64,000 nt of DNA from Arenicellales bacterium (GTDB lineage: Bacteria; Pseudomonadota; Gammaproteobacteria; Arenicellales; JAJDZL01), in assembly GCA_963666625.1 (NCBI GenBank), contig OY762925.1, positions 3,541,748 through 3,605,747 of the forward strand. The letters run 5' to 3'. Made by a program: the position numbers and the translations under genes. Below the pieces are notes generated by a model that worked only from the letters and a program-made list of their open reading frames with translations, made no database searches and was not told the origin of the DNA. Positions within the stretch are counted from its first letter, which is position 1. Each line of letters begins with the position of its first letter. Of this stretch, positions 11,491 to 32,701 are shown piece after piece.

Positions 11491-11580
11491 ATTCTGATAT
11501 ATGATTATGGTAGTTTTCTGGCAGACACTGGATAGCCAGCATTGATGTATGCTGATCGCCTCAGGAATACTGAAGACTCT

Positions 11581-13065
11581 ATGGCAAAAACTTCCGAAAA
11601 TAACAAAGCTCCATTCTTATTGGAGCGCGTGATGAAGCTGATGGCAGGGACAGAGTGGCAAGAGCGTATGCAAAGCCACTTTTCGGAATTCTACATGCCT
11701 GCGGCGCGGCGCAACAAAATGACTGGCGTAGAATATTTGGTCAAAGCAGGGGTGGAACGATTGGCGTTCATTTCCCGATTTGTGCTTGACGACTTTATGA
11801 CACGCTGGTACGGCAAGAATGGGGAGTTGAATCTTGTTCACAACTTCATACGAAATATTTCTGGGATCGACAAGGATTTCCACCTTGCCCAAGAATTTGA
11901 GATATACGAATTGATAGCCGAATCCAGACCCACTATGTATGAAGTCGTTGATGTTACGCGGGGAGTGAGGACCGTATTGAGAGACATGATATACGGCGGC
12001 GAAGACATCGTTATCGAAGAAACTGTCACGCTCTCAGAAATGACTGAACTATGGCAATGTCTCGCTGGCAGAGCAGTTCTGCACGATGACGTGCCGTTCT
12101 TATCGCCGAACTTTCTACCTTTCGATCAACAAATGGCAGGCGATTTCTTGGACAAGCTTGAGAGGATCATTGAAGAAAAGCTAAATTCGGCCGGTGCTGA
12201 CGAAAAATCGGGAAATACAACCTCCCAAGTCACTCGGGAAGATATTCTTGCAGGTCTGCCAATGTCTCAGATGTTAGCGGATTCCTGGAATGCTGCGATA
12301 GACGAGCGTGGTGGAATGCGATTTGGACTGCCGCCTCCGACTCTGGGCACAGTAGAGGGAGGAATTGTTGAGATCTGTGAGGTCACGTTTCGCGCCAGTG
12401 ACGAACTTCAACGGATCGCCGAGAGACTCGACGCGATTCCATCGCTTTCGAGAATTACGGGTGAAGATCGCAAGTGGAATTGGAATTTACCCAGAGAGGG
12501 GTTGGCCGAATACTTGCAGGCCATAGTGGAGTCCGAGGATCACGAGTTGTCGGACGAACGATCCGAAGTTAACTCCAATCACGAGGAATGGCTCGGCATT
12601 GTCGAACTCAATCCCAGAACGCTCACGCTATGGGTTCCCTCGAAGCCAAGAGCCGAAGCCGGTGAAAAGCTTTTAATAAGCTGCCTGGGTGATCTGGTAA
12701 CAAATCCGATGCTGACCTACACGAATTCGCATGAAGAAACCAAAAAAATATTGGATTCGTTAAAGCCGGGGTTGAACGAACTTTCGATGCCGGAGATTTT
12801 CACAAGCATGCACGGCTATTTTCGCAACCTGTACTACGGCAGTGCGATCGACATCCCTTCACGAGAGTATGACGATATGACTCCGCGTGAAATGGCACTT
12901 TCGTCCCGTGAACGACGAAAGGCGCTCGAATGGCTGAAAATGCGCGAGTGTACGGACCGTGTTATCTGCCGAGAGCATGGGTTGGATTTGTATGATTTCA
13001 CTTGGATGTGGCAGGAATTGGGGTTTAGTACCAGCCAGAGCCACGCTGATGATTCTGAGCAATAG
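11581..13065 (+). CDS. Hypothetical protein (about 494 aa), no recognisable domain
   Basis: Long uninterrupted ORF with a coding-like composition. Start taken at MAKTSENNK (the ORF-track start is 11542). No motif I can assign. Confidence 0.5.
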   Translation: MAKTSENNKAPFLLERVMKLMAGTEWQERMQSHFSEFYMPAARRNKMTGVEYLVKAGVERLAFISRFVLDDFMTRWYGKNGELNLVHNFIRNISGIDKDFHLAQEFEIYELIAESRPTMYEVVDVTRGVRTVLRDMIYGGEDIVIEETVTLSEMTELWQCLAGRAVLHDDVPFLSPNFLPFDQQMAGDFLDKLERIIEEKLNSAGADEKSGNTTSQVTREDILAGLPMSQMLADSWNAAIDERGGMRFGLPPPTLGTVEGGIVEICEVTFRASDELQRIAERLDAIPSLSRITGEDRKWNWNLPREGLAEYLQAIVESEDHELSDERSEVNSNHEEWLGIVELNPRTLTLWVPSKPRAEAGEKLLISCLGDLVTNPMLTYTNSHEETKKILDSLKPGLNELSMPEIFTSMHGYFRNLYYGSAIDIPSREYDDMTPREMALSSRERRKALEWLKMRECTDRVICREHGLDLYDFTWMWQELGFSTSQSHADDSEQ

Positions 13066-13559: not shown

Positions 13560-13912
13560 TGAAGCACAAAAATCGCACGATGGAAAAATCTTTGCTCAGT
13601 TTGGTAAAGCGCTACACCAGTTCTCGGATTCAACCGTACCTTAAGTCACTCATCCTGACATCGGCCAACTATAATTCGTCGCCAAATACTCAATCTACAC
13701 GATCGCCCGCCTCGAAAACACGCCCTCCGAAAGAATTACCGAAAGCGGTTCGACTACCTTTTGAGTTCACCTTGTTGGATACTGCAGCTCCGCCTCTATA
13801 CCAACAAATTTCAGCTAAATCAGTTCAACTCCATCAGCTCGGTTTGAGCAAGAATTCTATTGCCGCAAAGCTGAATGTCGATGAAAAGACCGTATCCAAA
13901 GCAATTCGGTGG
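13560..13912 (+). repeat. Junction module C: decayed serine-recombinase 3' end fused directly to the conserved HTH 'tail' (no ssrA mimic)
   Basis: 13640-13758 aligns by eye with 34240-34346 of the intact recombinase (for example CTCGAAAACACGCCCTCCGAAAGAATTACCGAAAGCGGTTCGACTAC). 13759-13912 encodes [51 protein letters not shown], 42/51 identical to the tail at 17246-17414. The 141-aa ORF 13559-13984 is a chimera of these remnants. Confidence 0.65.
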
Positions 13913-13953
13913 ATAAATGAAATCTGGTATCACTCTTTTAGTGACTATTGCAA

Positions 13954-14585
13954 CTACGCATCGATCTTCAGATGTTGCAGGTAGTCCACAAGCGAGTGAA
14001 TTTCTGTACTTGGGTTTGGGTTGTTTGTTTTCCTGCCATCGTCAATTGTTCGTTGGGCATTCGCTTTTGCGTCTTCCAGTCGGTCCTCAAGATCCTGAAA
14101 CACCCACCCTGCCCTTTTTTGTAGTTTGGAATATGTTTCTTCAAATCTCTTACGCAATTGTCGGCTGGACTTGCCTTACCTGATCTTGCGTATGGCTTGC
14201 GGGTGTAGCCGAAATGCAGAAGCAACCAAAATTCAAAGCACGGCCACGACCGTGCCAGTTTTAGTTTATTTGCCTTGGCGAATGCACAGGCTTCATCATA
14301 TGTTGCATGCTCATCTCTGTCAAAGACACAAAAGACGATGTCGAATTTCTCTCCGAGATTCAGTTCCCTCTTCTGAAGGTCAAGTGCTGCATTCACTACG
14401 GTAATCGGGGCCGACCCTTCATTGACTACCACTACATCAGCTACATTTAGTCTGTACCGATTCCTAATCTCGATGAAGTAATACGGCTCCGTCTTCGCAC
14501 CTTCGCAGACAATGAGAACGCGGTTGTAGGATTCGCGATTCAGTAATTTCTGTTTTGAGAACTTGCGCGGTTTCCGCCTGGCCAT
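13954..14585 (-). pseudogene. RloB-like protein gene (AbiLii-like), frameshifted
   Basis: N-terminal frame MARRKPRKFSKQ...VLIVCEGAKTEPYYF... carries the RloB signature. The conserved C-terminal part (VFQDLEDRLEDAKANAQRTIDDGRKTNNPNPSTEIHSLVDYLQHL) lies in another frame (ORF 13954-14157). The switch is near the A6-GGG run at about 14095-14125. Confidence 0.7.
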
Positions 14586-14595
14586 AGTGAATCCA

Positions 14596-15840
14596 CTAAA
14601 AGCGCTGTTCGAAGAACGGCAACGCTCCATACCTGCCGCTCAGGTATGACCGTTCAAGATTTTCCAGCCCCTTGCGAGGACTGAATTCCGCTAGCGGGAA
14701 CAAACGAGTCTCTTGTTTTTCGTTACGCTCACAGAACCAAATCTGATCGCGACGAAACACGGCTTGGTTCAGAATCGATGTATCGTGAGTCGTGAAGACC
14801 AGCTGAGCACCTCTTGCGTTTAGCCGAGGATCATGGAACTGATCGACCAAGTATCTGACCAGCGCAGGATGAAGACTGGCATGCAATTCATCGAAGACGA
14901 TCACGTTCCCATTCTTCAGGCTGTCAAGCCATGGACCAGCCAAAGCGAAGATTCGTTGTGTTCCGTCCGATTCATCTTCAAGTTGCAACTCACTCGGGGA
15001 ACTATTACCAGTATTGTGGCTCAGTCGCAGTTCGGGAAATTTCTTTCCAGCCATCATATCCTCTAGATATGGACTCAAATCCGGGTCCATGTCTGTTTGA
15101 AGTTGTCGCGGTTGAAATTCTTTCTCCACAACATGGATATCCGCAATGCCGAAATCGGCTACATTCAGAAAGTCAACAATCTCACGCTTGCGTTGGTCGC
15201 GGCACCAAGACATTGAATATGAGTTTATCCAGCCTTGAGTGTCGGTCACTTTCAACCTCTTCTTGAACCAATTGTAGATCGGTCGTAATTGTTCGCTGTT
15301 TAATGAAACTGCGGTTGACAGATACAGCGCATCGGGTCGGGTCGCGCGTTGCCAGACTTTCTTATCTCCTGTGAGGTTGGGACCAAAATCCCATGCATTC
15401 TCTGTGCGCTCAAACAAAACCTGGAGACGCCCGCGGGGCCAAGCGAAGAGCCACTCGTCAATTATTTGATGGCGAGTAGCTCTGAATCCATACTGGTACC
15501 TGACTCCTTCGGCAATACATAAGACTTCCAGCATTGTCGCCTCGTTCTCATTATTAGGGTCCAGACGAAATGGGGTCACCGGCAACTCAGCAAGGTGTTC
15601 AGTCGAGCGGGTGACAATGTATTTCATCGCACCCAACGCGTTGACCAAATTGCTCTTGCCAGCGGCGTTCGGTCCGTAAATGGCGATTGAGCGCACAAGC
15701 GGTTCATTGCGCACATTTCCCGAGAGTTCGGGCTTGACCAGGTGCGTGTCGCGCTGCTCGTTTCCGCGACCCGCAACCAGATTCAGCCGCGCCTCGTCGC
15801 GAATGGATTTGAAATTTTCGACCGTAAACTCTACAAGCAT
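14596..15840 (-). CDS. AAA-family ATPase (AAA_21 / RloA / AbiLi-like)
   Basis: Walker A YGPNAAGKSN, Walker B VIVFDELHASLHP, and C-terminal FTTHD block. It sits immediately upstream of the RloB-like gene (10-nt gap). Confidence 0.8.
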   Translation of the reverse strand: MLVEFTVENFKSIRDEARLNLVAGRGNEQRDTHLVKPELSGNVRNEPLVRSIAIYGPNAAGKSNLVNALGAMKYIVTRSTEHLAELPVTPFRLDPNNENEATMLEVLCIAEGVRYQYGFRATRHQIIDEWLFAWPRGRLQVLFERTENAWDFGPNLTGDKKVWQRATRPDALYLSTAVSLNSEQLRPIYNWFKKRLKVTDTQGWINSYSMSWCRDQRKREIVDFLNVADFGIADIHVVEKEFQPRQLQTDMDPDLSPYLEDMMAGKKFPELRLSHNTGNSSPSELQLEDESDGTQRIFALAGPWLDSLKNGNVIVFDELHASLHPALVRYLVDQFHDPRLNARGAQLVFTTHDTSILNQAVFRRDQIWFCERNEKQETRLFPLAEFSPRKGLENLERSYLSGRYGALPFFEQRF

Positions 15841-16218: not shown

Positions 16219-16641
16219 CTATGACTGATTGAACGGATTGACGATCGTAAGTTTTTCGATAATTTGACCGTCTTGTAAGTCTTCGCTGTAAAGGATTCTA
16301 CACTTGGCTTCAAGTGCAGCGGCCACAATTAGACTATCGTAAAACGAAAATCCGTAACGCCGCATAATTTCAAGCCCAAAGCGATAGTGTCGACCTGTCG
16401 GATTGACGGACCATAAAGGAACCAACACGTCTTCAAGAAATTGATGCGACTGTGCTGCTGTCGCACCTAACTTTCTCGTGATTACATTGATCGTCTCCTG
16501 AACAACCTGATAACTGATGTGCCCAATTCCTTCTCTCACTGCCGATTGAATCAAATCAACAGATCGTGTGCGTTTTTCACTATCTGTTTCATCAAATACG
16601 TATATGAATACATTTGAATCAATAAAGTACTTATCGTTCAT
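16219..16641 (-). CDS. vapC: PIN-domain ribonuclease toxin (VapC)
   Basis: 140 aa. YFIDSNVFIY (first acidic residue), SYQVVQE, FYDSLIVAAAL and YSEDLQDG fit the PIN acidic quartet. It overlaps the upstream antitoxin gene by 11 nt. Confidence 0.8.
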   Translation of the reverse strand: MNDKYFIDSNVFIYVFDETDSEKRTRSVDLIQSAVREGIGHISYQVVQETINVITRKLGATAAQSHQFLEDVLVPLWSVNPTGRHYRFGLEIMRRYGFSFYDSLIVAAALEAKCRILYSEDLQDGQIIEKLTIVNPFNQS

Positions 16642-16855
16642 TCATTTCTTCTCGAGAGAATTTACGGCCACCAGAAAAAATACTAGCTTGCAGTTCGCGA
16701 ATCGTTTCAATAGTTCGCTCACTTTTCTGTTCGCGCTGTACATAATTTTCCAACCACATTCGGAATTGTGCATTCAATGTCGTATTCTCAGTTGTTGCAC
16801 GTTGTCGCGCTTTTTCGATTAATTCAGCATCTGCACTAAGCGTTATGTTCTTCAT
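16631..16855 (-). CDS. vapB: VapB-type antitoxin (small DNA-binding protein)
   Basis: 74-aa ORF immediately upstream of, and overlapping, vapC (MKNITLSADAELIEKARQRATTENTTLNAQFRMWLENY). The assignment rests mainly on position and size. Confidence 0.6.
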   Translation of the reverse strand: MKNITLSADAELIEKARQRATTENTTLNAQFRMWLENYVQREQKSERTIETIRELQASIFSGGRKFSREEMNER

Positions 16856-16989: not shown

Positions 16990-17414
16990 GCACTCGCCGA
17001 ATTTTTGAAGATTACATTGTTAAAAAAATGTTGCGCAATCGAACGAAGTTCTCAGACATTTCGCAGACCCGATTGCATTCGAGGCGGTTTGGCGTGATAT
17101 CGGGAAGCCCTGATTCACCGCCCAAAGCTCGGTCAACGCAATTACCCTTTTCAAGAGCACACCCCTGAAAAAGATACGGAAGCGGTTTGACTAGATGGTG
17201 TTGGTGGACGTGGTCGCAACGTATTCGAACCCAGTCCGTACTGTATTTTGAGTTCACTTTGTTGGATACTACAACTCCGCCTCTCTACCAAGATATTTCA
17301 ACCAAATCTGTCCAACTTCATCAATTGGGCATGAGCAATAGATCAATTGCTACAAAATTAAAAGTTGATGAAAAGACTGTTTCAAAGGCAATTCGATGGG
17401 CAAAAGGACAATAA
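16990..17414 (+). repeat. Junction module B: decayed recombinase 3' end + decayed ssrA 3'-end copy + conserved HTH 'tail' ORF
   Basis: About 16990-17201 aligns with the last ~210 nt before ssrA in the intact recombinase, with 1-nt indels. 17202-17240 (TGGTGGACGTGGTCGCAACGTATTCGAACCCAGTCCGTA) mimics the antisense tmRNA 3' end. 17246-17414 encodes [55 protein letters not shown]. Confidence 0.7.
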
Positions 17415-17641: not shown

Positions 17642-18250
17642 ATGGCCAGAAAAACATTTATTTCCTATAAGTATAGTGAATCTCAAAGTCTACGGGACGA
17701 TATCATTACCGCCCTTGGTGCAGATGCCACTTACTATCAAGGCGAAACCTCCAACTCACCAGACTTGACCGACGAATCAACTGAACTCATAAAGAAAAAT
17801 CTCACTGATATGATGTACGACACATCAGTCACTATAGTCATCGCTTCCCCCAATATAAAGAGAAGCAATTGGATTGACTGGGAAATAGAATATTGTCTGA
17901 AAGAATATAGCCGGAAAGGACGAACTTCAAAGACGAATGGTGTCGTAGGAGTAATTCAAAAACATAATGGCAGTTATGATTGGTTGGTAACCAAGTCAGT
18001 ACAGCCGGACGGGTGTACCTTGCGAACAATTGACTCTTCAATGCTGTATCCGATCATAACAAATAACCGCTATAAGCGAAATGGTCGCGGATACGCCTGC
18101 GATACCTGTAATTCACACGACCAGTTGGAAGGTTCGTACATCTCACTGATTGACCAGGAAGATTTTCTTGCGGATCCTGAGAAATATATTGAAAATGCCT
18201 ATCATAAGTCGGAAAATTCTGATCAGTTTGAACTTGTCAAGCAAAGGTAG
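17642..18250 (+). CDS. TIR-like protein, DUF1863/ThsB-type (202 aa)
   Basis: RKTFISYKYSESQSLRDDI at the N-terminus, TSVTIVIASPNIKRSNWIDWEIEY (conserved W..E block), then a Cys-containing C-terminal extension. Confidence 0.65.
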   Translation: MARKTFISYKYSESQSLRDDIITALGADATYYQGETSNSPDLTDESTELIKKNLTDMMYDTSVTIVIASPNIKRSNWIDWEIEYCLKEYSRKGRTSKTNGVVGVIQKHNGSYDWLVTKSVQPDGCTLRTIDSSMLYPIITNNRYKRNGRGYACDTCNSHDQLEGSYISLIDQEDFLADPEKYIENAYHKSENSDQFELVKQR

Positions 18251-18374
18251 TGACCACATGTTGTCGGCAACACTCCTCAATAACTCGATAATCGTCTATT
18301 TCCTAACTCGCTCAAAACTTGTCCTTGATTTCTTTCGTGCGGTGAATGAAACCGCTCCATTGTAGGAGACTATC

Positions 18375-19532
18375 TTGAGTACATATGAGTTCGCGATTCT
18401 TGGTTGGATATTTCCGCGAAAACGCGACTTAATCGTTAGTGCAATTGAAAAATCTGTGACTGACTTCGGGCTTGTTATTGGTCAGGACGTAATAATTCAT
18501 GATGCCAAAAGCGTGCTGGAACGAGACAAATCTGCTGCATTCGTAGCTGTCTATATTGGAGATTCCTGCCATTTTGATGCAGAAATAGTGGAACAGTTAT
18601 TGCAAGAGAGTGTCCCAATAATTCCAACCTTGGGGCCTAAAGACGATTTCAACACCCATATTCCCGAATTCTTACAAGTTCTGAACGTGCATCGCCGTAG
18701 ACACGACGACCCATCCATGACCGAGCTAACTTCTGCCATGCTCGAAGCCGTGGGATTGCTGCGCCGTCAACGACGGGTTTTCATAAGCTATCGCCGTGTC
18801 GAATCTCAAACCGCGGCATCACAGCTTCATGATTTGCTCAGCGCGCGAGGCTTTGATGTCTTTCTGGACACTCATGATATAAGGCCCGGGGACCCTTTCC
18901 AGGATATGTTGTGGCACCGTCTTTGCGATTCAGATGTGATGATTATGCTGGATACTCCAACCTATTTGGACAACAAGTGGACCCGGCAGGAATTTGCGCG
19001 TGCATTGACTAAGGAAATTCATATTCTTCGTGTGGTTTGGCCGGAACATCAGCCAAGCAGACTGACGGAACTAGCCAAAACTATATATCTGGACTCCAAT
19101 GATCTGGTGGGCGTAGGCGGTCCAATACGTACTCAAAAGGCCGACGAAATCGCTCTTTCTGTTGAGCGCCTTCGCAGTCGTAGCATCGCTTCTCGCTACT
19201 TGTTAATAACCGGTCGTCTACGCGCGGACGTACAAAAGTTTGGTGCCACCATCGAAGGCATAGGGGCTCACCGCGCAATTGTCGTCCGTCTACCTGATGA
19301 TCGTCGAATATGGGCATACCCTGTTATAGGCATTCCTACAGCCAAGAATCTGAACGACATTGAAGATAGTACGGCTCCCAACGTTGGGCAAGGCGAGTTG
19401 CCGGTGCTCCTCTATGACGATATCGGCATCGACAGAAGCTGGAGCAATCATCTAGACTGGCTAAATGAGAAAGTCAAAACAGTCGAAATGGTGAAGATTT
19501 CCGAAGCCGCATGGTCACTTGCGACTTGGTGA
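18375..19532 (+). CDS. Multidomain TIR-domain protein (385 aa; unknown N- and C-terminal domains)
   Basis: Central block RRVFISYRRVESQTAASQLHDLLSARGFDVFLDTHDIRPGDPFQDMLWHRLCDSDVMIMLDTPTYLDNKWTRQEFARAL is a classical bacterial TIR domain with a candidate catalytic Glu. The TTG start is preceded by AGGAG at 6-nt spacing. Confidence 0.8.
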   Translation: MSTYEFAILGWIFPRKRDLIVSAIEKSVTDFGLVIGQDVIIHDAKSVLERDKSAAFVAVYIGDSCHFDAEIVEQLLQESVPIIPTLGPKDDFNTHIPEFLQVLNVHRRRHDDPSMTELTSAMLEAVGLLRRQRRVFISYRRVESQTAASQLHDLLSARGFDVFLDTHDIRPGDPFQDMLWHRLCDSDVMIMLDTPTYLDNKWTRQEFARALTKEIHILRVVWPEHQPSRLTELAKTIYLDSNDLVGVGGPIRTQKADEIALSVERLRSRSIASRYLLITGRLRADVQKFGATIEGIGAHRAIVVRLPDDRRIWAYPVIGIPTAKNLNDIEDSTAPNVGQGELPVLLYDDIGIDRSWSNHLDWLNEKVKTVEMVKISEAAWSLATW

Positions 19533-19538
19533 GGCCAA

Positions 19539-20162
19539 ATGACAGAAGCGATATTTCTCTCAGCCAGTGTTCCCGACCCGAAACGCGGTCCCCAATACGC
19601 GGTAACAGCCGATACAGTCGCAATTTCTTCGGCGGTTTCTGCATTGGTGCACGTAATTCTGGGCCGCCGTATTCTTGTATGGGGAGGACATCCCGCAATT
19701 ACACCAATGATTTGGCTTATCGCGGAAAACATCGGTGTAGATTACGGAAGTTGGGTTCATCTATATCAATCCAAATACTTCTCTGATGAATTTCCCGAAG
19801 ATAATGAGCGTTTTCAGAATGTTACGTATACGAAAAATATTGAAAACGATCGTAACAAGAGTCTGCTTTCCATGAGAGAGCAGATGCTTTCCGCCCGTCC
19901 TTTCGCGGCCGCTGTATTCATTGGTGGTATGGATGGCATCCTTGAAGAATTTGAAATATTGCGCCGATTACAGCCTAATACTGACGTAGTTCCAGTCATT
20001 TCTACTGGTGGCGCTACAATTGAACTGGCGAAACGATTGCCGAATATCGATCCAGATCTCACAAATGACTTTGACTATATCTCTGTTTTCCATCGCCATT
20101 TGAAAATTTCTTTCAAAGAAGGTCGTTTCAATCGTCCGACTGATAAGCTCGATACGACGTAG
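19539..20162 (+). CDS. Stand-alone SLOG/LOG-like Rossmann-fold protein (207 aa)
   Basis: IFLSASVP (beta1), VWGGHPAITPMI, and FIGGMDGILEEFE (GGxxGxxEE, the LOG/SLOG nucleotide-binding signature). The start is 6 nt after the TIR gene stop, with GAGG overlapping that stop. Assignment is by motif only. Confidence 0.5.
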   Translation: MTEAIFLSASVPDPKRGPQYAVTADTVAISSAVSALVHVILGRRILVWGGHPAITPMIWLIAENIGVDYGSWVHLYQSKYFSDEFPEDNERFQNVTYTKNIENDRNKSLLSMREQMLSARPFAAAVFIGGMDGILEEFEILRRLQPNTDVVPVISTGGATIELAKRLPNIDPDLTNDFDYISVFHRHLKISFKEGRFNRPTDKLDTT

Positions 20163-20288: not shown

Positions 20289-20786
20289 CTAATGCTCATT
20301 TCTAATGGCTATAGCCTCTTCGACGGCATCTGACAAATAAGTTTGAATCCAATTGTATCGTTCTCGGCTGTTTCTGCCTTTGGGATCGTAGCATTTCACA
20401 ATAGACGACAACTTCTTCCCAGTATTCCCATAACCAATATTATCAAATGGATTCACACCTTTTTTCGATGTGTTTCCATAGCTGTTTTCGAGTCCATGGA
20501 TATGAATGCCAACCACACCCATCCCATCATCCCAGGATTTAATGATCTCGTAATTGATCCACTTCCTTCCAGCGGTTTCCGTTCCCACCAAAACCACAGT
20601 ACAGGACCGTCCATGTATTTGACCAGCAATCCACTTCTTGATCGCATTTTCACCGCCTTTGGTTATGCTCTCCCAGTCGTTGTCCGTTGCCGGACGATTG
20701 CCTTCTATCACACCAATATTACGCACTTGACTCACTCGCCAATTGTCCGGAGCATAGTGAAAGCTGTAAAACACTCTTCGCGCCAT
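20289..20786 (-). CDS. ThsB-like TIR-like protein (DUF1863 type, 165 aa)
   Basis: RRVFYSFHYAPDNWRVSQVRN, SCTVVLVGTETAGRKWINYEI, GVVGIHIHGL and KKGVNPFD parallel the layout I recall for Bacillus Thoeris ThsB. Confidence 0.75.
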   Translation of the reverse strand: MARRVFYSFHYAPDNWRVSQVRNIGVIEGNRPATDNDWESITKGGENAIKKWIAGQIHGRSCTVVLVGTETAGRKWINYEIIKSWDDGMGVVGIHIHGLENSYGNTSKKGVNPFDNIGYGNTGKKLSSIVKCYDPKGRNSRERYNWIQTYLSDAVEEAIAIRNEH

Positions 20787-20795
20787 TGTCCACCT

Positions 20796-21218
20796 CTACA
20801 TTGTTAGAATTCCTAATAGTACAAGAACAACTATCAACAGTGAGCCGTAAAATCTGTAAACTGACCATGACCACGCAATATCCCACACTGAGGCGACATT
20901 TTTTTCATGAGGCTCATAATCAAGCTCAAACTCCTTGACACCCTTTTTTCCCAACACTGCAGAATAAAGCTCAATATAGCATTTCTCTAAGTGAAGGTAT
21001 CTCGCGTCCATTATCCAAAAGGCGATCACAGGGACACATCCTCCTAACACTATAAGCCAGTGAGGATCATCTGACAATCCCGAAAACATGAATACCGCTG
21101 TGACTAAGGACACAGCCCATGTTTTCATTTGCATACTGTTGCTCGCCATACGTAAAACGACACCCTGAATCAATTTCAGATGCTCTAATGTCGCTTGCTT
21201 CTCGTTACTCATGTTCAC
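20796..21218 (-). CDS. Small membrane protein with three predicted TM helices (140 aa), candidate effector
   Basis: Hydrophobic segments WAVSLVTAVFMFSGL, WLIVLGGCVPVIAFWIM and FYGSLLIVVLVLLGILT. It sits 9 nt upstream of the ThsB-like gene, with an AGGTGG RBS between them. Confidence 0.6.
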   Translation of the reverse strand: MNMSNEKQATLEHLKLIQGVVLRMASNSMQMKTWAVSLVTAVFMFSGLSDDPHWLIVLGGCVPVIAFWIMDARYLHLEKCYIELYSAVLGKKGVKEFELDYEPHEKNVASVWDIAWSWSVYRFYGSLLIVVLVLLGILTM

Positions 21219-21659
21219 TACTTACTATTGAGCATCAGCACTATTAAAGGATAATTTGCACCCCAAAAAGACTCGGTCAAAAAACCTGTACAAATCACGA
21301 CGGTACAACTTGACCAACCCTCTTTTGTTGGAATTGCAATAATGATCCCGGTCAAATTCCGTACTTCAAAGCAAGTCTCCTTCCGAATGGACTACTTCAT
21401 CAACCAATTGTATCAGCACTAGTGGCATTGCATATCACTCAGAATCGTTATCGAACAGAAGGCATCAGCGAAGTATCCTGATTCCAGGAACAAGATGCTA
21501 TCCCATCCAAATTCACCTGAATTGTTAAAATAACCCGGTTATTGATAAATTTTTTGATAATCAAGCCACAATAGTTTGTTTCAAGCCGATGTTGGTTGCA
21601 AATTGAGCTAGTGAGTAGTAAAGAGTTAAGTGATTGACGCTCCACTGAAATTACATCAA

Positions 21660-22601
21660 ATGAGTAAAACAAATTTAACATTCGACCGGTGCGCATTGTG
21701 TGCTGAATCATCCGATTTGCAATCGAGCCACATAATCCCAAGTTTTGTCTTCAATTGGCTTAAAAATACCTCCGCGACAGGCCATTTCCGCTCATCCGAG
21801 AATCCCAATCTGCGTGTACAGGATGGCTTAAAGCCTCGAATGTTGTGTAAGGAGTGTGAACAACTGTTTTCGTCGTGGGAAAAGAAATTTTCCGAAATAT
21901 GCTTTGTTCCGCTCAATAGTGGAAACATTCGCAATATTTCCTATGGACCCTGGATGCTGAAATTCGCAACCTCGGTTTCTTGGAGAGTATTACGTTACTT
22001 TAAAGCTAATGGATACCTTACTGAGTATCCCGAACACATCAGCACTCGTATCAATCATACCCTTGACGAGTGGTATAGATTTCTTCTGGGCGATACGCCC
22101 AATCCAGGGAAACATGGGCAACACATGTTCTTGGGAGATGTTATCGCTGGCACGTCCATCGCAAATACACCGGCCAATATCAGTCGTTATCTTGTTCGAG
22201 CAATTGATTGTGATGTAGCCTTCACCCAAGATTCAGCAATTACCTATGCAAAGATGGGTAAATTTGTCTTATTCGGATTTATAAAGATACCGCATCCACG
22301 TCAATGGGAAGGAACAAAACTACACGTTCGAAAGGGGTCATTCGGCGAAAAGAATATAGAACTGCCCAGCACCGTTGGTGAATATTTATTTGATCGTGCT
22401 ATGCGGGCAGCGAACAGCAATTCGAAAATCTCGACACGACAACGAGCAAGGATATCGAAATCCTACAAGCAAAACCTCGACCGCGCGGTTCAAAGCGAAA
22501 CGTTACGTGCTTTACATCAAGATGTCCTTTTGTTTGGAAATAAAGCCTTTGAGATCACACAACCCGAATCGGGTGAACTGGAAATTAAGGAAATCATATA
22601 A
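21660..22601 (+). CDS. Cys-rich protein with N-terminal HNH-like/zinc-finger motif, unknown C-terminal domain (313 aa)
   Basis: CALCAESSDLQSSHIIPSFVF ... LCKECEQLFS gives a CxxC...H...CxxC spacing reminiscent of HNH nucleases. It ends 4 nt before the hsdM ATG. Start set at the ATG (MSKTNL) rather than the GTG at 21630. Confidence 0.45.
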   Translation: MSKTNLTFDRCALCAESSDLQSSHIIPSFVFNWLKNTSATGHFRSSENPNLRVQDGLKPRMLCKECEQLFSSWEKKFSEICFVPLNSGNIRNISYGPWMLKFATSVSWRVLRYFKANGYLTEYPEHISTRINHTLDEWYRFLLGDTPNPGKHGQHMFLGDVIAGTSIANTPANISRYLVRAIDCDVAFTQDSAITYAKMGKFVLFGFIKIPHPRQWEGTKLHVRKGSFGEKNIELPSTVGEYLFDRAMRAANSNSKISTRQRARISKSYKQNLDRAVQSETLRALHQDVLLFGNKAFEITQPESGELEIKEII

Positions 22602-22605
22602 CATT

Positions 22606-25080
22606 ATGGCCATCAAGAAATCCGACCTTTACTCATCCCTTTGGAAATCTTGCGATGAACTTCGCGGCGGAATGGACGCAAGTCAATATAAGGACTACGT
22701 CCTCTTTATGCTGTTCATCAAGTACATCACTGACAAGTACGGGGAAAACTTCGACTTCCCACCGGTTTTGATCCCCAAGGGTGCAAGTTTCACAGACATG
22801 CTTGAACTTCGTGGTAAAAGCGACATCGGTGACAAAATCAACACGCAAGTCATCGCGCCGCTTGTTCAGGCCAACACACACCTTGCGAACAGCGACTTTC
22901 CCGACTTCAATGATCCCAACAAACTCGGTCAGGGCAACGAGATGGTGGAGCGACTAACAAACCTAATCAACATCTTCGCTAACCCGCAACTGAATTTTTC
23001 ACAGAACCGCGCCGATCACGATGACATTTTGGGTGATGCCTATGAGTACCTAATCCAACACTTCGCCACCGAGAGTGGCAAGAGCAAAGGTCAGTTCTAC
23101 ACCCCTGCTGAGGTAAGTCGTGTTATCGCCAAGGTGATTGGAATCTCACCGCATAACACTAGAGCTTCCACAACTGCCTACGATCCTACCTGCGGGTCTG
23201 GTTCACTACTCCTCAAAGTTGCCGCCGAAGCAGATAAGCCAATTACACTTGAGGGCCAAGAGAAAGACGTTACAACAGCTGGCTTGGCGCGTATGAACAT
23301 GATACTCCACGGTTTTCCTACAGCGAGAATTCGGTCAGGTAACACGCTGTCAGCACCTAAATTCACGGATGGTGAGCAACTCAAAACCTATGACTACGTC
23401 GTCGCCAACCCACCTTTCTCCGATAAATCTTGGACAACCGGCCTTACACCGTCGATGGATCGCTATCAACGTTTTGTGTGGGGAGAACCGCCTGCGAAAA
23501 ATGGGGATTACGCGTATTTGCTACACATAATCCGCTCAATGAAGGGTACCGCAAAGGCCGCTTGTGTTTTGCCACATGGAGTGCTGTTTCGCGGTAATGC
23601 CGAAGCCCGGATTCGCGAACAACTGGTGCGATCTGGTAACCTAAAAGGGGTCATCGGACTACCCCAAAATCTCTTTTATGGGACAGGTATCCCCGCATGT
23701 ATCGTCGTGCTTGACAAGGAGAATGCCGCTGGACGTAAGGGTGTGTTTATGATCGACGCCTCAAGGGGATTCAGAAAGGATGGCCCGAAGAACCGACTGC
23801 GCGAACAGGACATCCACCTGATTGTCGATACGTTTACGCGGCAGGTTGACGTTCCGCGCTACGCCCGAATGGTGCCATTTGACGAGATTACGGACCCAAA
23901 GAATGACTTCAATCTTAATCTGCCGCGATACATCGACAGCACGGAGACTGAAGACTTGCACGATATTGATGGTCACATGCGAGGTGGTATCCCAGAGCGA
24001 GATGTGGATGCACTTAGTGTGTACTGGCAGGAGTTCCCCAGCATTAAGACACTCCTTTTCGAATCCGCTGGTCGTCCCGATTACGTACGATTGAGGCCAG
24101 AGCTTACCCAAGTGAAGCGTTTGATTCTTGATCACTCCGAGTTTCTTGCCTACAAGCAGGAAGTCGAGGCGACATTCTCCGACTGGCGAATGGATAGCAT
24201 GCCGTCGCTTGTAGGATTCGGCAAGGACAGTCACCCAAAAGAACTGATCAAGGCCATAGCAGAGAATCTGCTAATAGCGTTTCGCGAGACTTCGTTGCTG
24301 GACTCATACGACATCTACCAGCACCTGATGGACTACTGGACTGAGACGATGCAAGACGATGCGTACCTGATAGCTTCTGACGACTGGATAAATGGAGCTC
24401 AGCCGCGCGAGATTATTCGGGTGAAGGACAAGAACAACAAACTTACTTGGGCCGAAGCACATGATTTTCTGCAGGAGAAAAAACGCTTCAAGTCGGATCT
24501 AATTCCTGCACCGATATTGGTTGCCCGTTACTTTTTAACTGAACGCTCTACTCTTGATGCAATCGACAATCAACTCGATGTATTGGAGCAAGAGCTTGAG
24601 GAGATGCGTAAGGAAAACGATGGTCAAGATGAATTGCTAGTTGAGGTGATTGAGGGTGATAAGCAAAGAATCACAGCAAAGGCTGTGAACGCGCGGTTGA
24701 AAGAAATTGGTAGTGACTATATTTACGACGATGAACGCTCTTTGCTTGAGCGGTATGCGGATTTGCTAAAACAGCAGTCAGTTGCCAGGAAAAATCGAAA
24801 GGCGACACAGGAGGATTTAGACGAAAAGATCGATGCAAAATACCAAAATCTCACAGAAGCTGAGATCAAGACTCTGGTTGTTGATGACAAGTGGATGGCA
24901 CACCTCTTCGCCCGTGTGCAAGCCGAAATCGACAGAGTTTCGCAACTGCTCACTGGCAGAATTTGCCAACTGGCTGAACGTTACGATACACCGCTACCAG
25001 AACTGGAACACAGAGTCGCTAAAATTCGTTCCAAGGTTAGGAGTCACTTGAAAATGATTGGGCTGGCGTTGAGTGAATAA
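22606..25080 (+). CDS. hsdM: Type I restriction-modification system, methyltransferase subunit (long form, 824 aa)
   Basis: N-terminal HsdM block MAIKKSDLYSSLWKSCDELRG, SAM motif DPTCGSGSLL, catalytic VVANPPFS, and a long charged C-terminal extension. The ORF-track start at 22375 overlaps the upstream gene and was rejected. Confidence 0.9.
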   Translation: MAIKKSDLYSSLWKSCDELRGGMDASQYKDYVLFMLFIKYITDKYGENFDFPPVLIPKGASFTDMLELRGKSDIGDKINTQVIAPLVQANTHLANSDFPDFNDPNKLGQGNEMVERLTNLINIFANPQLNFSQNRADHDDILGDAYEYLIQHFATESGKSKGQFYTPAEVSRVIAKVIGISPHNTRASTTAYDPTCGSGSLLLKVAAEADKPITLEGQEKDVTTAGLARMNMILHGFPTARIRSGNTLSAPKFTDGEQLKTYDYVVANPPFSDKSWTTGLTPSMDRYQRFVWGEPPAKNGDYAYLLHIIRSMKGTAKAACVLPHGVLFRGNAEARIREQLVRSGNLKGVIGLPQNLFYGTGIPACIVVLDKENAAGRKGVFMIDASRGFRKDGPKNRLREQDIHLIVDTFTRQVDVPRYARMVPFDEITDPKNDFNLNLPRYIDSTETEDLHDIDGHMRGGIPERDVDALSVYWQEFPSIKTLLFESAGRPDYVRLRPELTQVKRLILDHSEFLAYKQEVEATFSDWRMDSMPSLVGFGKDSHPKELIKAIAENLLIAFRETSLLDSYDIYQHLMDYWTETMQDDAYLIASDDWINGAQPREIIRVKDKNNKLTWAEAHDFLQEKKRFKSDLIPAPILVARYFLTERSTLDAIDNQLDVLEQELEEMRKENDGQDELLVEVIEGDKQRITAKAVNARLKEIGSDYIYDDERSLLERYADLLKQQSVARKNRKATQEDLDEKIDAKYQNLTEAEIKTLVVDDKWMAHLFARVQAEIDRVSQLLTGRICQLAERYDTPLPELEHRVAKIRSKVRSHLKMIGLALSE

Positions 25081-25101
25081 CGAGACCTTACACAGGCAGT
25101 C

Positions 25102-26379
25102 ATGAAACAGATCTTTACTGACACGACCCAATCGCCGGAATTCAAGGGAGATTGGAAGGTAAAGCAGATACGAGAGTTTGCTTCATGCACAGCGGGAGGA
25201 ACGCCGAGTACATTAGTTCCTGAGTTTTGGGGCGGATCGATTCCGTGGATGAACTCTGGTGAGCTACACCAAAAGCAGGTCGACGAAGTTGACAATTACA
25301 TTACTGAAAATGGATTGTTGAACTCTAGTGCAAAATTGTTACCAACCGGTTGTGTGCTGATCGGTTTAGCCGGTCAAGGCCGAACACGCGGAACGGTGGC
25401 CATGAATCTAATTCCGCTTTGCACAAATCAGTCAATAGCTGCAATACTCCCCAACTCTAATTTCGTACCTGAATATCTGTATCACAATCTCCATAGCAGA
25501 TACACTGAACTAAGAGACCTTTCATCTGGTGGCGGTGGGCGGGGTGGTCTAAACTTGACGATTATCGGTTCAATTATGATTCCGTTTCCCAGCATCTCCG
25601 AGCAGCATGCCATCGCCACCGTCCTCTCTGACATAGATGCCGAAATTGCTATTCTTGAAGCCCAGCATAAGAAAATGCTGAATCTCAAAATGGCCGTCAT
25701 GCAACAACTCCTAACTGGCCAGACGCGCCTCCCGGGATTCTGTGACGAATGGAACATGACGCGGTTAGGGAACCATGTTACATTTCTGCGAAATGGCGTG
25801 AACTCGCGCGCAGAACTTCTCCTAGAAGGCCGAATTAAGTACCTACACTATGGTGATGTGCATGCCTCCAAAGATGTATACATTTCTACTGTTTCACTGC
25901 CATGCTTGCCTGATTTCAAAGCATCATCGCTCGACCGATTACAAGACGGAGATTTAATTTTTGCCGACGCATCCGAGGATATCTCTGGTGTGAGCAAGTC
26001 GGTAGAGGTGAGAGATGTAGGTAGTAATGAGCTTGTGTCAGGTTTGCACACGATCGCGGCAAGATTCGACAAGAATGTGCTCGCTAATGGTTTCAAAGGT
26101 TTTCTTCAGTTCTGCCCACCGTTCGTGAATCACCTTCGGCGCCTCGCTGCAGGGACTAAGGTATTCGCGACGAACCGTGCACACATCGCAGATGTAGAAC
26201 TGCCACTGCCCTCGATTCCCGAGCAAGTCGCGATCGCCACAGTCCTCTCCGATATGGAAGTTGAAATTGCCGCGCTTGAAGCCCGCCGCGAAAAGACTCA
26301 AAACCTCAAGCGTGCGATGATGCAGGAATTGCTCACCGGAAAAACGCGACTCGTTCTACCCGAGGTATCCCATGTCTGA
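25102..26379 (+). CDS. hsdS: Type I restriction-modification system, specificity subunit
   Basis: Two target-recognition halves, each followed by the conserved helix: SEQHAIATVLSDIDAEIAILEAQHKKMLNLKMAVMQQLLTGQTRL and PEQVAIATVLSDMEVEIAALEARREKTQNLKRAMMQELLTGKTRL. Confidence 0.9.
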   Translation: MKQIFTDTTQSPEFKGDWKVKQIREFASCTAGGTPSTLVPEFWGGSIPWMNSGELHQKQVDEVDNYITENGLLNSSAKLLPTGCVLIGLAGQGRTRGTVAMNLIPLCTNQSIAAILPNSNFVPEYLYHNLHSRYTELRDLSSGGGGRGGLNLTIIGSIMIPFPSISEQHAIATVLSDIDAEIAILEAQHKKMLNLKMAVMQQLLTGQTRLPGFCDEWNMTRLGNHVTFLRNGVNSRAELLLEGRIKYLHYGDVHASKDVYISTVSLPCLPDFKASSLDRLQDGDLIFADASEDISGVSKSVEVRDVGSNELVSGLHTIAARFDKNVLANGFKGFLQFCPPFVNHLRRLAAGTKVFATNRAHIADVELPLPSIPEQVAIATVLSDMEVEIAALEARREKTQNLKRAMMQELLTGKTRLVLPEVSHV

Positions 26380-29300
26380 ACAACCGCGTTCCGAACGCGA
26401 CACACAGAACCGTATCGTTGCTCTGTTCACCGATCCAACGCATCCAAATCATCTCGGCTACCACTACTTGGGAGACTGGAGTAACCGAGTAAACAATCGA
26501 GCTATCGAAAAGGGATTTTTGAGGGACAACCTCAAAACCCGCGGCTATTCCGAGTCCCAAATTTCCGCTGCCCTCCAAAAGCTCGAATCTGCGGCTGATT
26601 TGACTCACACTACGCTCTACCATGCGAATCTCCGTACCTACAAGCTTCTGCGTTATGGCGTTCCGGTGCAGACCGCTGCGGGACAGGCACATGAGACGGT
26701 GCATCTCGTGGATTGGGACCACCCCGAGAACAACGACTTTGCGCTGGCTGAAGAAGTGACGGTTAAAGAAGGCTACGAACGTCGACCCGACATAGTTTTG
26801 TATCTAAATGGTCTTGCAGTGGCCGTGATTGAGCTGAAACGCAGTTCGGTGGAGATCGGCGACGGAATCCTGCAACTCATTACCAATCAGGAAGATATCT
26901 TCAATGAGCCGTTCTTCAGCACAGTACAACTTCTCTTCGCAGGAAACGACTCACAGGGACTGCGCTACGGCACAACACGCACGCGAGAGCAATTCTTTGT
27001 GCGGTGGAAAAATTATGTACAGACTTTAGAAGAAGGGGTACTGCTTGATTTACCGCTGATCGAAATGTGCAACAAGGCCTGGATGCTCGACTTTATTCAA
27101 AACTTCATTGTGTTCGATGCTGGCCTTAAGAAGGTTCCGAGACCACATCAGTTCTTCGGTGTCAAGGCCGCACAAGCTCGCATCAAGAAGCGCGAAGGTG
27201 GAGTTATCTGGCACACACAAGGTAGTGGGAAAAGTATCGTAATGGTACTGCTTGCAAAGTGGTTACTTGAACATGATCCCGACGGTCGCGTCCTTGTTGT
27301 AACTGACCGCGACGAGTTGGACAGGCAAATTGAAGACGTGATGAAGAACGCCGAAGTGGTCAGCAAGGACACTATATCCCCGCGAGTCACGTCTCGGGCT
27401 CAGTTTATAGAATCTCTATCTGCGACATCTCCTCGACTTCTGTGCGCATTGGTCCACAAATTCGACACAACTGACCTTCACGGCGACCCACCGCCTATCT
27501 CAGGTAACTTCTACGTGTTTGTGGACGAATGCCATCGGACGCAAGGGGGCAACATGAACCGACAGATGAAGCGCTGGATGAAAGGGGCGATCTTCATCGG
27601 TTTCACTGCCACGCCCTTGCTTCGCGAGGACAGGCGGCTGACGCGAAGTGTATTTGGCACATACATACACACCTACAAGTTTCACGAGGGCGTTGCCGAT
27701 AACGTTATCCTAGACTTGAAGTACAGAGCGCGCAATGTACCGCAGCGCCTTACCTCGCAGGCCGACATTGACCAATGGTTCGAACAGAAGACTAAAGGCC
27801 TGAACAACTTCCAAAAGGCACTGATTAGGCAACGATGGGCGACGATGCGGGAGTTAATGAGTGCTGGCGAACGCAAGCAACGCATCATCGCCGATATCAT
27901 CCAAGACTTTAGTATCAAACCGCGGCTTAACAATGATCGGGGGACTGCTATCTTAGTCACTAGTTCAATTCACGATGCCTGTCACTATTATCGACTTTTC
28001 CAGAATACAAACTTCGGCTGCTACTGTGGAATCATTACGTCATACGAACCGAACCAAAACAAGATTTCCCGCGAACGAACTGACAGCGACGAGCGATACA
28101 AGTTCGAAACTTACACCCGCCACGTCTTGAGTGACCGCCAATCTACCGAGAAATATGAGGAGGAAACCAAGCGTCGTTTCATCGAAGAACCAGCGGAGAT
28201 GAAATTGCTGATTGTTGTAAGTAAGCTGCTGACTGGTTTCGATGCCCCGAGCTGTACATACATCTATCTCGACAACGAGTTGCACGACCATCATTTGTTT
28301 CAGGCTATCTGTCGTACAAACCGCCTTGATGGCGATGACAAGGAGTACGGCCACATTATCGACTATAAGGAACTGTTCAGTGAGGTGCAGGAAGCGATCG
28401 CCATCTATAACTCCGATGAACTGGACACTGATCCAGGTAGCGGTGGCAGTAACAATGTTTACATCAATGACTGGCTGGTTGAAAGTCGGAGAAAGCTGGA
28501 TGAAACACGGGAGGCACTCCACTACCTGTGTGAACCTGTTCAATTGCCCCGTGAAACGGAGCAGTACCTACACTATTTTTGTGGCGACGCTAGCGATCCA
28601 AATGCGCTGAATGAAACTGAAGTTTTACGAATTTCCCTCTACAAAGCTGTGGCAACCTACGTGAGAGCTTTCGCATCTATAGCGCAAGATCTGAAAGAGG
28701 CTGGATATTCAGATTCCGAGGCCACAAACATCCGGAAGGAAGTTGAGTTTTACAGCGAGATCCGATCGACTATCAAGATACACTCCGATGAGGAATTGGA
28801 CATTAAGCCATACGAAGCAGACATGCGCCATTTGCTCAACACATATGTCCAAGCGGACTCCTCCACCGTTTTGGGTGATCTGAACGATATGTCCTTAATT
28901 GAGGCAATAGTGAATACCGGCATCCATGATGCTGTCGCACGTAAACTCAACAAAAAAAGCAAATTGTCAAATAATGCAGTCGCGGAAGGAATTATTCACA
29001 ATGTCCGAAAGACCATTGTCCGAGATAAACTCACCGACCCCCAATTTTACAAGCAGATGTCGACACTGTTGGATGACCTAATCAAGCAAAGCCGTGAGGA
29101 TGCAGTTGCTTACGAGGAATTTCTCCGACAGGCCGATGCACTGGTGAATCGGATCGTCCACAAAAAGTCTGGCGATGGTGCACCAACCGTACTATTCGAC
29201 AGGCCCGAAGCGGCGGTAATTTACAACAACTTGCCGATGATTCTCAGCGATCAAGCTGCAGGGCCAGCCGCCGATAACGAGGACAAGTTCTTAAACTTGG

Positions 29301-29467
29301 CACTGCAGATTGATCGCGCTATGCGCGAACAGGCACCAGCAGGATGGAAAGGCGATCAGGCACGTGAATCCCAAGTATTAAGCGCACTGTATCCACTGAT
29401 GAACTCCAACCCAGAGCACACACGTGCATTGTTTGATCTTATCAAGAATCAGCGAGGCTACCAATAA
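26372..29467 (+). CDS. hsdR: Type I restriction endonuclease, R subunit (1031 aa)
   Basis: N-terminal nuclease-type block (RPDIVLYLNGLAVAVIELK), helicase motif I HTQGSGKS and motif II VFVDECHRTQ. It overlaps hsdS by 8 nt. Confidence 0.9.
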   Translation: MSEQPRSERDTQNRIVALFTDPTHPNHLGYHYLGDWSNRVNNRAIEKGFLRDNLKTRGYSESQISAALQKLESAADLTHTTLYHANLRTYKLLRYGVPVQTAAGQAHETVHLVDWDHPENNDFALAEEVTVKEGYERRPDIVLYLNGLAVAVIELKRSSVEIGDGILQLITNQEDIFNEPFFSTVQLLFAGNDSQGLRYGTTRTREQFFVRWKNYVQTLEEGVLLDLPLIEMCNKAWMLDFIQNFIVFDAGLKKVPRPHQFFGVKAAQARIKKREGGVIWHTQGSGKSIVMVLLAKWLLEHDPDGRVLVVTDRDELDRQIEDVMKNAEVVSKDTISPRVTSRAQFIESLSATSPRLLCALVHKFDTTDLHGDPPPISGNFYVFVDECHRTQGGNMNRQMKRWMKGAIFIGFTATPLLREDRRLTRSVFGTYIHTYKFHEGVADNVILDLKYRARNVPQRLTSQADIDQWFEQKTKGLNNFQKALIRQRWATMRELMSAGERKQRIIADIIQDFSIKPRLNNDRGTAILVTSSIHDACHYYRLFQNTNFGCYCGIITSYEPNQNKISRERTDSDERYKFETYTRHVLSDRQSTEKYEEETKRRFIEEPAEMKLLIVVSKLLTGFDAPSCTYIYLDNELHDHHLFQAICRTNRLDGDDKEYGHIIDYKELFSEVQEAIAIYNSDELDTDPGSGGSNNVYINDWLVESRRKLDETREALHYLCEPVQLPRETEQYLHYFCGDASDPNALNETEVLRISLYKAVATYVRAFASIAQDLKEAGYSDSEATNIRKEVEFYSEIRSTIKIHSDEELDIKPYEADMRHLLNTYVQADSSTVLGDLNDMSLIEAIVNTGIHDAVARKLNKKSKLSNNAVAEGIIHNVRKTIVRDKLTDPQFYKQMSTLLDDLIKQSREDAVAYEEFLRQADALVNRIVHKKSGDGAPTVLFDRPEAAVIYNNLPMILSDQAAGPAADNEDKFLNLALQIDRAMREQAPAGWKGDQARESQVLSALYPLMNSNPEHTRALFDLIKNQRGYQ

Positions 29468-29469
29468 AG

Positions 29470-32533: not shown

Positions 32534-32701
32534 GTGAACAAATTCAATACACAACTTCAGCACTCGGAAAATGCTGAACCCGAATATTCTTGTGAACTAC
32601 TTTTGTCATATCTTGCGAAAGAGATTGCAAAAGAGTACGTCAAGCGCCTAGAAAATAATCAATCACTCGAAGCTGAAAAACAACCAGAGGAAAATAAATA
32701 A
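32534..32701 (+). CDS. Small ORF (55 aa) translationally coupled to the serine recombinase gene
   Basis: GTG ... VNKFNTQLQHSENAEPEYSCELLLSYLAKEIAKEYVKRLENNQSLEAEKQPEENK*. Its TAA overlaps the recombinase ATG (TAATG at 32699-32703). It is below the ORF-track size cutoff and has no motif. Confidence 0.3.
   Translation: MNKFNTQLQHSENAEPEYSCELLLSYLAKEIAKEYVKRLENNQSLEAEKQPEENK

Follow-up and report, generated by a model that had tools for sequence, protein, structure and literature searches.

The 64,000-nucleotide (nt) stretch of contig OY762925.1 analysed here (the window), from an Arenicellales bacterium, carries two adjacent genes that we assign with near certainty to thcB4 and thcA, the gene pair that characterises type III Thoeris, an anti-phage system. 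The first gene (18375..19532, + strand) encodes ThcB4, a three-domain TIR protein of 385 amino acids (aa), and the second (19539..20162, + strand) encodes the 207-aa protein ThcA, a SLOG (cluster 3) protein that is free-standing. We recognize the pair as the core of a type III system based on curated protein models, the literature and comparison with a contig that carries the prototype genes. Two NCBIfam models (June 2026), both equivalogs, identify the proteins. ThcB4 matches NF058526 (Thoeris_type3_ThcB4) with 449.5 bits (cut-off 220), residues 4-380 aligning to positions 1-375 of the 375 in the model, and ThcA matches NF058525 (Thoeris_type3_ThcA) with 262.4 bits (cut-off 110) over positions 1-184 of 184. 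Homologues are numerous (3435 for the SLOG protein and 1949 for the TIR protein), thus neither open reading frame (ORF) is a product of chance.

Type III Thoeris is treated in a 2025 preprint that names van den Berg et al. 2024 as the first report, and Table S1 of the preprint gives Pseudomonas aeruginosa L0872 four TIR domains and the effector class 'SLOG - Type III' (10.64898/2025.12.03.692087). According to secondary citations, phage resistance has been reported for this P. aeruginosa prototype only. Using the published TIR1 fragment we recovered a contig (L081; L numbers denote loci and contigs, P numbers proteins) that encodes TIR1, TIR2 and TIR3 in order, with 96, 89 and 93% identity to P. 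aeruginosa L0872. After TIR3 follows a TIR_2 protein of 379 aa, which includes the 'TIR 4' fragment of the publication and is an end-to-end homologue of the window ThcB4 (BLASTP, residues 1-385 on 1-376, E=1e-73, 33% identity). The last of the five genes encodes a 192-aa PF18180 protein that is 51% identical to the window ThcA and overlaps the thcB4 homologue by ATGA. An identity of 27% to the published TIR1 had suggested that the window protein falls outside type III. We rejected this suggestion once 'TIR 4' proved to be the protein to compare with, TIR1 being encoded by a gene of its own (165 aa).

ThcB4/ThcA already has a name and curated models as a type III Thoeris system, so the pair is not a new entity and, as an identity, the find is an ordinary one. 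For annotation, the locus is a type III Thoeris system composed of a ThsB-like TIR, ThcB4 and ThcA. PADLOC (2023) would report nothing but orphan 'ThsB' genes at this locus: its full-length model of the 385-aa family is filed as 'ThsB' (PDLC00434, E=1.6e-83), and it has no model for the SLOG protein. RefSeq records keep generic names, and NCBIfam has no specific models for the short TIRs of type III.

Coupling, co-conservation and fusion of thcB4 and thcA

The two genes are translationally coupled. A first-pass annotation of the window had proposed that the 385-aa protein starts at a TTG with AGGAG 6 nt upstream and that its stop codon overlaps the GAGG of the SLOG gene, and the sequence agrees on both points. 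The TTG at 18375 is the first possible start of the ORF, and it is backed by homologues that begin MS.YE.AILG and by the NCBIfam alignment, which starts at residue 4. The AGGAG ribosome-binding site lies at 18364..18368 (+ strand). At the junction (19530..19541, + strand), the TGA of thcB4 (19530-19532) overlaps the GAGG (19531-19534), and the ATG of thcA follows at 19539, leaving a spacer of 6 nt between stop and start.

This arrangement is widely conserved. We scanned one genome per species, found SLOG relatives in 344 genomes and examined 80 loci. In 77 of them, thcA is immediately preceded by a full three-domain thcB4, a result that bears out the expectation that the two genes would be co-conserved in other genomes. 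The three exceptions are two contig ends and a decayed locus (L003). The latter had looked like a stand-alone SLOG gene, an interpretation we rejected: a stop-ridden 3' remnant of thcB4 (6840-7000) precedes the intact thcA. Decay is also seen in another type III locus (L059, 5846-7660), where thcB4 and thcA are both frameshifted. The distance from the thcB4 stop to the thcA start is between -4 and +5 nt in 76 of the other 77 loci, and in the commonest junction, TGG GAG Gnn TGA nn ATG, the last codons of thcB4 make the Shine-Dalgarno sequence.

The proteins also evolve together. Pairwise identities of ThcB4 and ThcA are correlated (r=0.86; Mantel 0/999), with mean identities of 64-65%, whereas the upstream short TIR, drawn from at least two families, has a mean identity of 44% and a correlation of only about 0.57. 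Furthermore, the two proteins are fused in at least four lineages. Three single chains (P0419, P0422 and P0461) comprise a ThcB4-like N-domain, a TIR domain, a C-domain and then SLOG3, and further fused ThcB4-SLOG3 chains are encoded on L086 and L088. Among 81 additional metagenomic loci, 71 are split, 4 fused and 6 truncated, and closely related human-gut lineages include both the split and the fused state. The pair occurs on 29 plasmids, mostly conjugative, where a tblastn search recovered split pairs only, and in 4 of 5426 complete Escherichia coli genomes.

Some of the fused chains are accompanied by, or joined to, a hexapeptide-repeat protein. On a gut metagenome contig (L085, 4110-4613), a hexapeptide-repeat protein (LbH, acetyltransferase-like) is encoded just upstream of a fused ThcB4-ThcA. 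In another lineage, a hexapeptide-repeat protein forms residues 1-165 of P0422, N-terminal to the ThcB4-ThcA chain. The partner TIR in this setting is a protein of 480-660 aa.

Domain architecture of ThcB4 and ThcA

ThcB4 is predicted by AlphaFold2 (AF2) to fold with good confidence (predicted local distance difference test, pLDDT, 88.2; predicted TM-score 0.85). A TIR core between two unassigned flanking regions had been proposed for this protein. Pfam places TIR_2 at residues 135-240 (E=3e-18), and the flanks are conserved and folded in the model. The N-domain, the TIR domain and the C-region are all detectable in more than 70 homologues.

The TIR domain comprises residues 133-240 (18771..19094, + strand), of which the AF2 model shows 133-238 as the TIR fold. 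W202, T203 and E206 are invariant in 46 sequences, and the motif W202-x3-E206 lines up with WxxxE, the catalytic motif of AbTir (7uxr) and SARM1. Foldseek matches the domain to the TIR of RPS4 (TM 0.61). RPS4, SARM1 and AbTir are relatives of the TIR domain alone. Beyond TIR domains, Foldseek with full-length ThcB4 returned the amino-terminal domain of the NMDA receptor, LacI and EngA at TM of about 0.2, which we discarded as generic two-lobe alpha/beta likeness and not meaningful.

The N-terminal domain (residues 1-125; 18375..18749, + strand; AF2 pLDDT of about 90) is a four-stranded alpha/beta domain with the elements E4-10, H14-29, E39-42, E55-61, H69-77 and E81-86. It is the least conserved region of the protein, with a mean identity of 45%. 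A likeness noted by eye, AAFxAxYFGG...PIIPTV against AAVFIGGM...VVPVVSTGG, had raised the idea that this domain is a degenerate SLOG or TIR. We rejected it given an hhalign E value of 0.078 with a probability below 1%, and SLOG Pfam matches in 0 of 46 family members. The Pseudomonas-type ThcB4 protein has a single weak LD_cluster3 match (E=0.24).

The C-terminal region (residues 251-385; 19125..19529, + strand) is modelled by AF2 as a long helix (253-288) followed by a small alpha/beta domain. Its many invariant residues of polar or aromatic type include R267, R274, R283, Y347, D348, H359, W362 and W380. The N- and C-regions have no match in Pfam, in PDB sequences or to each other, and the C-domain has no similarity to TIR or SLOG. 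In the natural fusions the SLOG domain follows directly after the C-terminal region, which probably faces ThcA.

ThcA matches the Pfam model PF18180 (LD_cluster3, SLOG cluster 3) over its whole length (positions 1-170 of 170, 259.6 bits against a cut-off of 25, E=1.5e-77), and its AF2 model (pLDDT 75.7) has the SLOG fold. The top Foldseek match, and nearest solved structure, is the SLOG domain of BcThsA with 3' cyclic ADP-ribose (3'cADPR; 7uxs, E=5.8e-5, TM 0.51), so the earlier description of the 207-aa protein as SLOG-like holds. LOG enzymes come next (5its and 5zbl), with a TM of 0.56 versus 0.51 for ThsA. The same first-pass annotation had considered a free-standing SLOG protein unusual. 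The opposite is the case: an exhaustive profile search of 1.84 billion representatives yielded a SLOG3 set of 1222 proteins, nearly all of which stand alone at 190-225 aa. Conservation of ThcA across phyla is high (60-85% identity). A literature search, with van den Berg 2024 and Burroughs 2015 outside its reach, found no mention of PF18180 or LD_cluster3.

The invariant residues R113, G133 and E137 of ThcA align with R371, G399 and E403 of ThsA, which contact the diphosphate and the distal ribose of 3'cADPR. This local hhalign alignment is weak (E=0.07). Global hhalign of SLOG3 against the BcThsA SLOG failed, and a usable alignment was obtained only around R...GG...G..E. K388 of ThsA sits in an insertion that is absent from ThcA and has no counterpart there. 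Judged from sequence and fold, these features constitute a generic SLOG nucleotide pocket, which a sensor and a LOG-like enzyme would have in common.

Short TIR genes and a possible mechanism

A third gene completes the locus. ThsB202 is a short ThsB-type TIR of 202 aa (17642..18250, + strand; Pfam ThsB_TIR E=3e-11; PADLOC PDLC00428 E=8.6e-81) whose gene ends 124 nt upstream of thcB4 on the same strand, outside the segment that the first-pass annotation described. No terminator-like site was identified in the interval, and a promoter and terminator scan found nothing above shuffled expectation that would decisively separate or join the three genes. We consider ThsB202 a candidate phage sensor and signal producer. 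It occupies the same position in L001, L002 and L028. The second short TIR near the pair, ThsB165, is encoded on the opposite strand and is paired with a membrane protein. ThsB165 is also the best match of the window short TIRs to TIR1-3 (41-43% identity to TIR2 and TIR3), and neither short TIR is an orthologue of TIR1-3.

Extra TIR genes are present at every complete locus, and the three-gene form (short TIR, ThcB4, ThcA) is commoner among the genome loci than the five-gene prototype. Where an adjacent upstream short TIR is missing, other TIR genes lie downstream or convergent: a 320-aa TIR_2 protein (L034, L042), a ThsB (L050, L055), or a TIR-like gene with a whole type I Thoeris (L032). In metagenomes, the pair is flanked by 1-4 short TIRs, which represent at least seven families and whose order varies, and across more than 150 loci their number (1 to 4) and family vary.

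The short-TIR families also reach into other Thoeris types. A TIR1-like protein is encoded beside a SIR2-STALD ThsA. Between ThsB202 and the TIR domain of a type IX ThsB from P. macerans 8244 (2639430606), identity is 63% (E=3e-54). In L081 and L032, the gene that immediately follows thcA has 36-38% identity to the validated type IX ThsB of B. cereus VD021, a protein that makes 3'cADPR on infection.

Apart from these, a four-gene cluster comprising a ThsB-type TIR, Nmad2, MazG_C and a UDG-like protein lies by type III or type I Thoeris genes in L050 (2777-5706), L055 (7830-12556) and L083/L084 (2906-5798). L055 also encodes a SLOG(cluster 2)-patatin protein nearby.

Since ThcB4 and ThcA are constant, co-evolving, translationally coupled and sometimes fused, we place them on the effector side of the system. 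Since the short TIRs are variable, multi-copy and common to several Thoeris types, we regard them as ThsB-like sensors. For these two reasons we favour, with a little less than even confidence, a mechanism in which short TIRs sense the phage and make an ADP-ribose-derived signal, ThcA receives it and ThcB4 acts as an NADase. The interchangeable short TIRs would convert NAD+ to the signal on infection, and the signal would bind in the SLOG pocket of ThcA, the predicted receptor of a TIR-made molecule. Translational coupling would keep ThcA in fixed proportion to ThcB4, with which we infer that it forms a complex. Binding of the signal would turn on the TIR NADase of ThcB4, the N- and C-domains serving as scaffold or docking surfaces, and NAD+ would be depleted and the infection aborted. 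ThcB4 and ThcA together would thus be a two-chain equivalent of ThsA (SIR2-SLOG) and of the fused TIR-SLOG effectors. Taken as a whole, identity and mechanism together, we consider this explanation probable.

Several points weigh against the proposed mechanism. The secondary sources call type III signalling uncharacterised and the SLOG protein the effector. In type IX, which has a fused TIR and SLOG effector, added 3'cADPR gave no toxicity, therefore a simple relay may be incomplete. W-x3-E is kept in all three TIRs of the window, and a signal producer and a consumer of NAD+ look alike at this level. The alignment of SLOG residues with ThsA is weak by itself, with K388 unmatched, and by TM-score LOG enzymes match the ThcA model as well as ThsA does.

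In a reading that we consider unlikely, ThcA would be a LOG-like N-glycosidase. Either ThcA itself would be the effector, and deplete AMP, some other nucleotide or a metabolite derived from NAD, or it would convert the TIR product into an active or toxic molecule. The role of ThcB4 would be to provide or present the substrate. After ThsA, the best structural matches of ThcA are LOG phosphoribohydrolases, with equal or higher TM-scores, and the family keeps invariant R113 and E137, 24 residues apart, together with a GG-x-x-G-x-x-x-E loop. We take these to resemble the catalytic R/E dyad and the PGGxGTxxE motif of LOG enzymes. The published classification makes the SLOG protein the effector. Type VIII Thoeris uses a nucleotide hydrolase effector ('CMP hydrolase'), and Aravind and colleagues predicted that certain SLOG domains act on ADP-ribose derivatives by cleaving ribosyl N-glycosidic bonds. 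However, the best Foldseek E value belongs to a non-catalytic sensor, the ThsA SLOG, in which the same R/E/G residues bind ligand and are not a sign of catalysis. Pfam gives no LOG (Lysine_decarbox) match to ThcA, only LD_cluster3 and a weak STALD, and an enzymatic ThcA would leave its obligate coupling to a three-domain TIR protein without a reason.

The first-pass annotation had taken the tight coupling to suggest a 1:1 producer-reader pair. The coupling stands, in junction spacing, co-divergence and fusions, but the pair is not self-contained, as complete loci all carry extra TIR genes. A version in which ThcB4 senses phage through its N- and C-domains and produces the signal, ThcA is its dedicated 1:1 reader, and the short TIRs are accessory or belong to other systems, seems to us decidedly improbable. 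The two extra conserved domains of ThcB4 could sense phage, its TIR keeps the Trp and Glu needed for ADP-ribose cyclisation in AbTir, and the nearest extra TIR is sometimes part of another module, either TIR-Nmad2-MazG_C-UDG (L050, L055) or type I Thoeris (L032). Yet such a system would have no recognisable effector, and the sensors of Thoeris are normally variable and multi-copy, while ThcB4 is the constant part. Moreover, the validated prototype is described with four TIRs.

That ThcA carries no effector domain would also suit a buffer or regulator, acting as a stoichiometric sponge for the signal or as an inhibitor that silences ThcB4 or the TIR array below a threshold. Killing would then fall to ThcB4 or to a separate effector, for example the 140-aa membrane protein TM140 (PADLOC PDC-M50A), a homologue of which is encoded close to thcB4 and thcA in 10 of 80 loci, and immediately downstream in L081. 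We regard this as very improbable indeed. The TM140 family is missing from most loci and has its own dedicated TIR partner (PDC-M50), and a core signalling part better fits how strongly ThcA is conserved between phyla, as well as its fusion with ThcB4.

The comparative data give handles on the mechanism favoured here, with ThcB4-ThcA on the effector side, swappable short TIRs on the sensor side and ThsB families common to types III and IX. They also name residues that can be mutated, E206 of ThcB4 and R113 and E137 of ThcA.

Genomic setting and comparison with known systems

The type III genes lie in a defence island of about 24 kb at ssrA, next to the transfer-messenger RNA (tmRNA) gene. The region from about 10 to 34 kb has a guanine-cytosine content of 40-48%, compared to about 55% for the flank on the left. 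The gene of a large serine recombinase (32701-34389, + strand) runs into the tmRNA gene (34354-34717, - strand), and the defence cluster as a whole resembles an island that integrated at ssrA. Upstream of the Thoeris genes are AbiL (AbiLi/AbiLii; AAA_21 and RloB; 13968-15840, - strand) and PIN/VapBC-like genes (16219-16855), the island contents including a PIN toxin and a Phd/YefM antitoxin. A direct repeat of 159 nt (79% identity; 13759-13917 and 17246-17404) lies within two helix-turn-helix gene fragments. These fragments bracket AbiL and the PIN/VapBC-like genes and possibly mark the edges of an inserted module. Downstream is a type I restriction-modification system (M, S, R; 22375-30183, + strand) with a YgjP-like metallopeptidase directly after hsdR. 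Two ORFs, at 21630-22601 (+ strand, 323 aa) and 11542-13065 (+ strand, 507 aa), have no Pfam, PADLOC or NCBIfam match, and the annotated start of the hsdM-like ORF, at 22375, falls within the first.

Convergent to thcA are the genes for ThsB165, a 165-aa ThsB-type TIR (20289-20786, - strand; PADLOC PDC-M50B, E=2.8e-66), and TM140 (20796-21218, - strand; PDC-M50A, E=2e-30). These two, which correspond to the PADLOC candidate system PDC-M50, are probably a module in their own right, made up of a TIR and a membrane effector and often found in company with type III. TM140 has no Pfam or NCBIfam match and may be an uncharacterised Thoeris-like membrane effector. Its homologues in the genome loci were counted within 7 kb of the pair. 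PDC-M50-type pairs also occur in L081 (3918-5105) and L143 (2905-3977), and the TIR partners of TM140 homologues come from different families, the B. cereus VD021 ThsB family among them.

The five-gene block of the window (ThsB202, ThcB4, ThcA and the convergent PDC-M50) recurs in three metagenome-assembled genomes labelled Arenicellales, Rhodobacteraceae and Deltaproteobacteria (L001, L002 and L028), although we detected no TM140 homologue in L028. This distribution suggests that the block moved horizontally as a unit.

Compared to the type III prototype of P. aeruginosa L0872, the window has the same hallmark proteins in the same order with a coupled junction, and both loci lie in a defence island. 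Short TIR genes accompany the pair in each, but their number and families differ. The prototype has three short TIRs upstream (TIR1-3), whereas the window has a single adjacent one, from another family (ThsB202), and no TIR1 orthologue. Between the Pseudomonas-type and window proteins, identity is 33% for ThcB4 and 51% for ThcA.

The fold of ThcA, SLOG/Rossmannoid, is common to LOG (Lonely Guy) phosphoribohydrolases, with a TM of 0.56 to the Corynebacterium glutamicum LOG, and ThcA keeps the Arg/Glu pair and glycine-rich loop. The LOG motifs PGGxGTxxE and GGGxxGLM appear in ThcA as the variants IGGMxGIxEE and WGGHPAITPM, and ThcA has no LOG-family Pfam match at E<=0.1. LOG enzymes belong to metabolism, whereas the setting of ThcA is defence and TIR genes.

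Type I Thoeris (ThsB and the SIR2-SLOG protein ThsA) follows the same logic as the window locus, in which variable TIR sensors accompany a constant SLOG-bearing partner. The two types have short-TIR families in common, and the nearest solved structure to ThcA is that of the ThsA SLOG with 3'cADPR. Unlike ThcA, which belongs to LD_cluster3, stands alone and has a three-domain TIR protein as its coupled partner, the SLOG of ThsA is a STALD domain fused to SIR2. The window pair has no SIR2_2 match in Pfam and no PADLOC ThsA match, and STALD falls below its cut-off on ThcA (14.6 bits versus 24, E=0.023).

Type IX (ThsB and ThsJ, 'TIR and SLOG'; Yirmiya et al. 2025 preprint) has the same domain content as the window, namely a TIR, a SLOG and a separate ThsB, and type IX and type III loci have three ThsB families in common. 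The type IX effector ThsJ is a single TIR and SLOG polypeptide, whereas the window encodes two ORFs with a stop codon between them. The locus is therefore neither type I (it has no SIR2 and its SLOG is not STALD) nor, being unfused, type IX as defined. The natural fusions and the ThsB families in common suggest that type III may be the split version, and type IX the fused version, of a single system. We tentatively propose, as a possibility that we would not yet call probable, that ThcB4 and ThcA form a two-chain, signal-gated TIR-SLOG effector, that types III (split) and IX (fused) are one system with interchangeable arrays of sensor TIRs, and that the N- and C-domains of ThcB4 are a new scaffold coupling a SLOG receptor to a TIR NADase. 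If so, two Thoeris types would be merged, and ThcB4 would be another TIR that acts as a signal-activated executioner and not as a maker of the signal.

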